Translations under genes and position numbers: made by a program
Shown: positions 3,274 through 4,895 of the stretch, piece after piece
How the letters are laid out: the number at the start of each line of letters is the position of its first letter
Position numbering within the stretch: position 1 is the first letter of the stretch
Notes under the pieces: model-generated
Database searches by the model: none
What the model was told of the DNA's origin: nothing
The model's input: the letters and a program-made list of their open reading frames with translations, nothing else
Source of the DNA: an uncultured bacterium
GTDB taxonomy: Bacteria > DYJV01
Length of the DNA: 61,942 nucleotides
Assembly (NCBI GenBank): GCA_964543655.1
Contig: CAZIZE010000085.1
Span: 1 to 61,942 of the forward strand
Reading direction: 5' to 3'

Positions 3274-4318
3274 AAGCTTTCAAATACTTTCTGTAATATC
3301 TTTTTATTTCAAAAAATTTTTCAAGTGGTTTATATGAAGATGATATATCAGCTCTATAAATTTCAAATATAGCTTCAAAATCTGGATGGGATACTATTTT
3401 TGATAATTTATATTCTGGAATTTTATTAAGTGCAGGTGGAAGCATATGGTATTTAATTAGAAAACTCACCCTTTCAATAAAGTCATTGCTGAAATTAAGC
3501 CTTTTTAAAAATTTTTTTGCAATACCTGCTCCAATCTCAGCATGACCATAAAAAGGCTTATCTTTTGTACTATCACAGAAAGCCTTACCTATGTCGTGCA
3601 AGAAAAGTGAAAGAGCATTTAATAAATTTCTCTTTTTTAAAAATTTAAGAGATTCAAGTGTATGTAACCAAACGTTACCTTCTGGATGAAAGTCTTTAAC
3701 ATGCTCTATTTTTGTCATTTCATAAATTTCAGGCCAGAATTTTTCAATAAAACCTGATTGTAGCAATATTTCCAATCCTTTGTCAGCATGTTCTCCTTCA
3801 AGAATTGAAACGAGAATCTCTTTCTGATAATTTTCATGAATATTTACTGGCAATGGAGAAATTTTTAAAAGAGGGTCATTGCAGATAAAATCATACTTTG
3901 AAGTTAACTTGGCTTTTTCAGGTATTAGATAAGGTGAAGATTTGCTACTTATTTTCATTGAAGCATTTTTTATATTATCAAAGCTATTTTCAAAAGTTTT
4001 AAATATACCTTTTTTACAGTCAAAAAGAAAATATTGCACATTAAATGGAAAATCTGGAAAACTCCCATGTTCTGATGTAAAAATTAATATTTTTGTCTCA
4101 TTATGTTCAATAACAGCATCAAAAAAAGGGATTTTGTAAAATTCTACATTATTGAATAATTTAAATAGCTCTATTAAAGTGGCATCTGTTATCAAATAGG
4201 AGTAATCTGGCGAGATTTTACTATTTAAATAAAGGTCTATTGCGCTGTAACTGCATAAATAGCACTGAAAATTATTGTTAATAAGCTTGTCAATTACTGG
4301 CTTTATGGATATTGTCAC
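3260..4318 (-). CDS. CCA-adding/poly(A) polymerase-like protein with degenerate nucleotidyltransferase head and intact HD domain
   Basis: C-terminal [26 protein letters not shown] and RAD motifs of the CCA-enzyme HD domain; N-terminal fold traceable but GGxVRD, DxD, RRD and EDxxR motifs missing. GTG start at 4318 preferred; ORF track starts at 4348. Confidence 0.75.
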
Positions 4319-4895
4319 TTTTTCTCTTTCTAATTTTAATATAAGCAAATATTAAAATCACAACAAAAATTAAAGTTGCAATAGTGATATGATGTAAATA
4401 TTTTTTTATTAATGTTTCATTTTTGCCAATTAAATAACCAAGCAATGTAAGAATAAAAACCCATATACCTGCACCAAAAGCAGTGTAAATAATAAAGGTA
4501 AAAATATCCATTTTAGCAAGTCCTGCTGGTAGCGAGATATATTGCCTGACCCCAGGTATTAAACGTCCTGTAAATGTGGAAATATGACCATGATTTTCAA
4601 AAAAATTTTCTAACTTTTTCAACTTCTCCTCTTTAATTAATTTAAGTATCCCTGCTCTTCCAAATTTATAAGCTATAAAATAATTAAAAATCGCTCCTGT
4701 AATACTTCCTAATACTCCCATAAAAATAGCAAATATAAAGCTCATATCTCCTCTGTGCGCAAGGTAACCAGCTGGCACCATAACAACTTCACTTGGAAAT
4801 GGGAAAAATGAGCTTTCAAGAAACATCATAAAAAAAATCCCTAAATAACCGAGGGAGCCAACAGTATTAACAATGAAACTAACAATTTCATTCAT
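4290..4895 (-). CDS. dedA: DedA family membrane protein
   Basis: [12 protein letters not shown] and [16 protein letters not shown] DedA motifs; ATGA overlap with the upstream GNAT gene. Confidence 0.9.

Follow-up and report, generated by a model that had tools for sequence, protein, structure and literature searches.

An UptA-like DedA gene coupled to a predicted ceramide synthase gene in one bacterial family: housekeeping lipid-carrier recycler or sphingolipid flippase?

Does a DedA-family gene whose start codon overlaps the stop codon of a ceramide-synthase-like gene take part in moving sphingolipids across the inner membrane? The question is raised by a locus in a 61,942-nt stretch of DNA from an uncultured bacterium (hereafter the window), for which a first-pass annotation had suggested that the DedA copy may flip ceramide or one of its precursors. 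The crossing of the bacterial inner membrane by sphingolipids is an acknowledged gap, one that a gene coupled to bCerS might help to close. In Caulobacter, Spt and bCerS are cytoplasmic whereas CerR is periplasmic, and the inner-membrane sphingolipid flippase is unidentified (PMC11087976); a 2026 preprint on the LptFGC paralogues leaves the flipping step open as well (bioRxiv 10.64898/2026.04.12.717747), so that the literature agrees with the remark in the annotation that this step is poorly assigned. If the DedA protein did flip sphingolipids, it would be the first DedA-type flippase for these lipids and would represent a third solution, independent of the Wzx-like and MsbA-like ones that are candidates in Proteobacteria; in the literature that we searched, no DedA member is tied to sphingolipids. 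The reading that we favor, with a confidence somewhat above even, is that the gene encodes a housekeeping UptA-like scramblase of undecaprenyl phosphate (C55-P) or other lipids, which in one family has become the third cistron of an spt-bCerS operon. What is new here would then be a known kind of DedA protein in an unusual operon context.

Table 1. Features of the dedA locus, with coordinates in the window
Feature	Coordinates	Strand	Description and basis
spt	6023-7228	minus	First gene of the unit; serine-palmitoyltransferase-type alpha-oxoamine synthase; Aminotran_1_2 and NF047600
GNAT-type N-acyltransferase gene	4892-6013	minus	373 aa; bCerS/YghO ('aca') family; Acetyltransf_1 and YghO homology
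ATGA stop/start overlap, GNAT gene/dedA	4892-4895	minus	Read directly from the sequence
dedA	4290-4895	minus	201-aa DedA/VTT-domain inner-membrane protein; VTT_dom match; sole PF09335 match in the genome
HD-domain gene	3260-4348	minus	Protein like the C-terminal half of CCA-adding enzymes; Pfam HD, E 4.1e-07; TIGR02692, E 1.2e-12

The two genes upstream of dedA (Table 1) are both members of the bacterial ceramide core composed of Spt, bCerS (CC_1154, YghO) and CerR. The spt frame is open to position 7324 (6023-7324), with a likely ATG at 7228, and its homologues align from about residue 33. Its product matches the Pfam family Aminotran_1_2 with an E-value of 2.4e-62, and its top NCBIfam match is the serine palmitoyltransferase model NF047600 (CFB/Bacteroidota type), with 605.8 bits against a cut-off of 640. 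The GNAT-type protein carries the Pfam domain Acetyltransf_1 at residues 216-356, is matched by no NCBIfam model even at an E-value of 10, and aligns over its full length with E. coli K-12 YghO (37% identity over 370 residues, E 3e-86, hhalign probability 100). One paper (PMC9386255) names yghO alongside Caulobacter CC_1154 as 'aca', the N-acyltransferase in dihydroceramide synthesis, and it is through YghO and this paper, not directly against Caulobacter CCNA_01212, that we assign the protein to the bCerS/YghO ('aca') family, with a predicted catalytic activity. The full-length similarity to YghO and the adjacency of such GNAT genes to spt in 42 genomes (see below) justify the label "ceramide-synthase-like" that the gene had been given. 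Relative to the ceramide core, a CerR-type reductase is absent from the dedA locus, and relative to the ceramide loci of Proteobacteria so are the ACP and the acyl-ACP synthetase. The best CerR candidate in the same genome is unlinked and putative (C42:5682-6650, 30% identity to an spt-linked epimerase of genome G007).

The GTDB phylum to which the window belongs is small and vent-associated, with two families and six genomes at the species level. All four members of the window's own family (G000, which is the window's genome, G001 from the same genus, G002 and G003; three genera in total) have the spt-GNAT-dedA trio, as do three metagenome contigs (L090, L092 and L093), and its surroundings vary, with four distinct contexts downstream and three upstream. 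At the junction itself, the plus strand of the window reads TCAT, which is ATGA on the minus strand, and the ATG of dedA (4895-4893) overlaps the TGA stop (4894-4892) of the GNAT frame, exactly as first described. An overlap of this type is, by itself, frequent in operons. The close spacing is common to all the related loci, in which the junction does not exceed 5 nt: the two genes overlap by 4 nt in L090 and by 1 nt in G001, G002 and L093, and are 5 nt apart in G003. The genes of the window follow each other on the minus strand in the order spt, GNAT, dedA and HD gene; the terminator scan found no terminator-like site between them, and the promoter scan found promoter-like matches at the background level (25 compared to 23.3 expected). 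A prediction of a complex between the GNAT (alignment A2) and DedA (alignment A1) proteins gave a score of 0.00 and was weighed neither way. In L092, whose sequence is 99% identical to that of G003, an A-run is shorter by 1 nt, which splits dedA into frames of 91 and 63 aa (L092:5119-5693); this may be either an assembly error or a real frameshift at the strain level.

The first-pass annotation had listed the HD gene as the last one of the strand run. All four genes do lie in such a run and the trio is conserved in the family, but the HD gene is not. The length by which its frame overlaps the 3' end of dedA depends on the start codon, being 29 nt with the GTG at 4318 and 59 nt with the TTG at 4348. 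We rejected it as a part of the unit because a homologue is missing after dedA in G001, G002, G003 and L090; in G001 a convergent trkH follows dedA directly, with nothing between them, and in G002 and G003 the genes after dedA are those for an aminotransferase and an aldehyde dehydrogenase. The HD protein, found only in the window's genome, is similar to CCA-adding enzymes of class II in their C-terminal half; its N-terminal region, judged by eye, looks like a degenerate nucleotidyltransferase head.

The identification of dedA as a member of the DedA family is secure: its product matches the Pfam domain VTT_dom (PF09335) with 84.9 bits (E 8e-24, cut-off 33.9), covering profile positions 1-123 of 123. 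Its best NCBIfam matches are the two UptA models NF052604 and NF052605, with 111.3 and 76.2 bits, both below the equivalog cut-offs of 250 and 300 bits, respectively; the generic DedA model PRK10847 scores lower than either of them (54.7 bits). The UptA models are also the best ones for an orthologue from the sister family (128 bits) and for one from Helicobacter (139 bits). Since the equivalog threshold is not reached, we file the gene as a DedA-family member of the UptA-like type and not as UptA, and for the same reason (111 vs 250 bits) C55-P is a substrate that we infer and do not assign; the direction of transport is inferred as well. The protein shares the single VTT domain and the length of about 200 aa with the known undecaprenyl-phosphate flippases of the UptA type (B. 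subtilis UptA/YngC, S. aureus UptA, E. coli DedA and P. aeruginosa PA4029), as well as the conserved charged residues of the loop motifs, and it comes from a genome whose content calls for a C55-P recycler. It differs from them in its modest score and in its operon with spt and bCerS, which is unreported for UptA. Both re-entrant-loop motifs, with their conserved acidic and arginine residues, are present. Across the 38 sequences of alignment A1, E27 and R117 never vary, and E36 and R111 are conserved at 90% or more. These residues would correspond to E39, D51, R130 and R136 of E. coli YqjA. A sequence search of the PDB returned no solved relative of the DedA protein, and for its upstream neighbor only weak matches to GNAT domains.

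The gene content of G000 points in the same direction as the family assignment. Exactly one PF09335 match, the DedA protein of the window, was found in this MAG, which is 94% complete, so that the assembly may lack another DedA or a DUF368 gene; the same-genus genome G001 likewise contains one PF09335 gene. DUF368/PopT, the other known family of C55-P flippases, was not found in the 94%-complete G000, and BacA/UppP, which releases C55-P on the outer face of the membrane, is present. With one DedA, no DUF368 and BacA present, the DedA protein is the sole candidate for a C55-P recycler in G000 from the two experimentally established flippase families. UptA-type DedA proteins have been demonstrated experimentally to transport C55-P (bioRxiv 10.1101/2022.02.03.479048; PMC9876793; PMC12893004). 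The phylum also possesses a second DedA type, in G002 and in the sister family, which has no UptA match and sits with redox and rhodanese genes.

If the association with spt and bCerS reflected a function in the sphingolipid pathway, it might be expected to recur among the relatives of either partner. A homologue scan with one genome per species yielded 43 DedA loci, of which 42 are at 46-83% identity and on named contigs, almost all of them from Campylobacterota (Arcobacteraceae, Helicobacteraceae, Campylobacteraceae, Sulfurospirillum and Hippea). An spt or GNAT gene lies within 6 kb in one of these 42 loci, that of the same-genus genome, and the other 41 are unlinked. In five Campylobacterota genomes that carry the DedA orthologue no GNAT homologue was found anywhere; the Campylobacterota genomes with the orthologue hold 4-6 DedA paralogues each. 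Within the phylum of the window, the orthologue occurs in six of six genomes, one per genome. The two genomes of the sister family (G004 and G005) lack the GNAT gene and also spt, having only a BioF/Kbl-type paralogue of 40-46% identity, and their DedA orthologues, 57-59% identical to that of the window, are both unlinked. They are encoded at the end of an operon (L069:4142-7068 in G004, L070 in G005) that consists of the genes for RNase PH, a Ham1/RdgB-GT2 fusion, LAB_N and finally dedA. The best model for the GT2 domain is ArnC, an undecaprenyl-phosphate sugar transferase, and the location of dedA in the sister family is a context predicted to use C55-P. G000 keeps an operon of the sister type on contig C54 (L083), with Ham1 and GT2 as separate genes and without dedA. 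The small LAB_N membrane protein beside a polyprenyl-phosphate glycosyltransferase may merit attention in its own right.

Because all the linked loci belong to one family-level clade, they count as a single evolutionary event. The close homologues of the DedA protein are thus usually unlinked to spt and bCerS, as indicated by 41 of the 42 homologues, by the sister family, and by the survey of spt-GNAT pairs described below. This is the pattern that the first-pass annotation, which had suggested looking at the synteny and co-occurrence of this DedA subfamily, had itself named as telling against a flippase.

The converse comparison starts from the GNAT family, which was found in 88 of the 251 genomes sampled. 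Of these 88 genomes, 42, which represent 37 GTDB families, have an spt-type gene no more than about 1 kb from the GNAT gene, almost always directly upstream and on the same strand. None of the 42 pairs, in these 37 other families, has a DedA gene beside it, the nearest one being 8.6 kb away and on the other strand, in one genome. Moreover, five of the 42 genomes have no detectable DedA at all (completeness 100, 100, 99, 96 and 59%); the four that are 96-100% complete, each with an spt-bCerS pair, are G019, G013, G182 and G125. DedA is therefore no general answer to the problem of sphingolipid flipping, as the pathway exists in many lineages, some of them without a detectable DedA and none with a DedA neighbor. 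The survey also revealed an apparent natural fusion, in which the matches to Spt and to the bCerS-type GNAT fall within a single 810-aa open frame (G241:C13:21609-23936). Some genomes with the GNAT family have no Spt-type gene at an E-value of 1e-70 and several have two or three paralogues (G065, G228, G006, G029, G192; G007, G174, G221, G178), on the basis of which some members of the YghO/bCerS-type GNAT family probably have acyl acceptors that are not sphingoid bases.

We also asked whether the spt-linked copies of the DedA protein differ from the others. Of 62 columns conserved at 90% or more among 39 homologues of the Campylobacterota type, all four spt-linked proteins retain 61. The single exception is F22, a position that varies in the sister family too, in which 57 of the 62 columns are kept. 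Maximum-likelihood analysis groups the four spt-linked copies together (SH-aLRT 90) on a short stem branch of 0.16, compared to 0.91 for the sister family, and both clades of the phylum sit in an unresolved comb of Campylobacterota sequences; monophyly of the six copies from the phylum is not rejected (p-AU 0.755). Neither the conserved columns nor the stem length provide a signature that would separate the spt-linked DedA proteins from their unlinked orthologues, and at the level of sequence we see no sign of neofunctionalization. Arrival of dedA by transfer together with spt and the GNAT gene is unsupported, given the orthologue in all six genomes of the phylum and the p-AU of 0.755, with the deeper tree unresolved.

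Taking these data together, we propose that the DedA protein would carry C55-P, and perhaps further lipids as well, back across the cytoplasmic membrane from outer to inner leaflet, as shown for UptA-type DedA proteins; the acidic and arginine residues conserved in both re-entrant loops would serve this transport. In one family its gene has become the third cistron behind spt and bCerS, as a consequence of which it would be co-transcribed and probably translationally coupled with them, and the protein would be neither a general nor a dedicated part of the sphingolipid pathway. A general lipid-carrier recycler is likelier than a dedicated sphingolipid flippase because the protein is the only DedA in its genome and an unchanged copy of one that occurs in sphingolipid-free bacteria. 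The observation that sits least comfortably with a housekeeping role is the preservation of the trio, with a junction of at most 5 nt, despite its differing flanks, which would be unnecessary for an unrelated gene. A gene without its own promoter within an operon is hard to remove, and it tends to stay there whatever its function. The locus may thus serve as a cautionary case, in which operon coupling need not mean a role in the pathway.

It is conceivable, if unlikely, that the role is a housekeeping one that concerns neither C55-P nor sphingolipids, such as a PetA-like distribution of phosphatidylethanolamine or a YqjA/YghB-like homeostasis linked to the proton-motive force, with the placement in the operon being an accident. 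Several roles have been documented for DedA paralogues (PMC10193950; PMC10846249; bioRxiv 10.64898/2026.09.20.752871), the UptA cut-off is not reached, and with 4-6 paralogues in the Campylobacterota carriers the orthologue need not be their C55-P flippase. Nonetheless, the UptA models outscore PRK10847 on the window's protein (111 vs 55 bits), C55-P needs a recycler, for which the two known families offer no candidate but this DedA, and an ArnC-like enzyme accompanies the orthologue in the sister family, all of which argues for the C55-P recycler.

We consider it possible, but about as unlikely, that the protein is a lineage-specific or moonlighting sphingolipid flippase. Such a protein would scramble the product of bCerS (oxidized ceramide/3-keto-dihydroceramide) or ceramide across the inner membrane, thereby giving access to a periplasmic reductase and to the export machinery, and its coupling within the operon would keep its amount in step with the making of the lipid. 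The ATGA coupling to bCerS and the persistence of the trio in the four family genomes and the three metagenome contigs are what such a function would lead one to expect, as is the fact that in the spt-linked family dedA has left the GT2-LAB_N operon, which still exists on C54 in G000. The separation of Spt and bCerS from CerR in Caulobacter, mentioned at the outset, speaks for a transporter of this kind as well. Eukaryotic TMEM41B/VMP1, which belong to the same VTT superfamily, are scramblases that move bulk membrane lipids. PetA, the DedA member of B. subtilis responsible for phosphatidylethanolamine distribution, belongs to the same superfamily as the window's protein and indicates that VTT-domain proteins can move bulk membrane lipids, that their substrates vary and that DedA can have a broad lipid specificity (PMC10193950); by this analogy, a housekeeping role may leave room for the flipping of ceramide too. 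Yet a dedicated flippase is difficult to reconcile with the absence of DedA from the vicinity of all 42 independent spt-GNAT modules and its apparent absence from five of these genomes, with the near identity (61/62 conserved sites) to orthologues in genomes free of spt and GNAT, and with the reduction of all the linked loci to one event. The suggestion that this particular copy flips ceramide or a precursor is thus not sustained: it is an undiverged copy, the only DedA in its genome, and its homologues are nearly all unlinked.

Other candidates for the flipping step exist, both in the literature and in G000. Caulobacter CC_1166 and E. coli YghQ (Wzx-like, IPR002797) and the LptF2/G2/C2 paralogues, proposed as the sphingolipid flippase and extractor (PMC11324152 supplement; bioRxiv 10.64898/2026.04.12.717747), resemble the case described here in being membrane-transport-type genes inside sphingolipid loci. 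However, they belong to families unrelated to DedA (MOP/Wzx and LptFG) and recur in many sphingolipid loci, while DedA does so in one family only. MsbA-like and Wzx-like families have been proposed elsewhere for sphingolipid flipping (PMC11324152 supplement), and G000 contains one MsbA-like exporter (593 bits) and one Wzx-like protein, which weighs against the need for a DedA flippase, although both are unlinked to spt. Its single LptF/G pair is encoded away from the spt locus, and no Wzx or ABC gene of the sphingolipid-locus kind was found beside spt in G000, both of which are points in favor of the flippase reading. Wzx-like Polysacc_synt genes occur in all four spt-carrying genomes of the family and in neither of the two from the sister family, i.e. 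with the same pattern as spt-GNAT; this may be a coincidence, as only six genomes are involved.

Two further observations concern the phylum and the window in general. The DedA of the phylum nests within the Campylobacterota DedA clade at 52-65% identity, which suggests either an old gene transfer between vent lineages or an unrecognized affinity. Elsewhere in the window, a 359-aa protein without a family match (10504-11583) comes after a 697-aa protein (8393-10486, minus strand) that combines a Spi protease-inhibitor prodomain with a C10 (streptopain-type) cysteine peptidase and a lectin-like domain.
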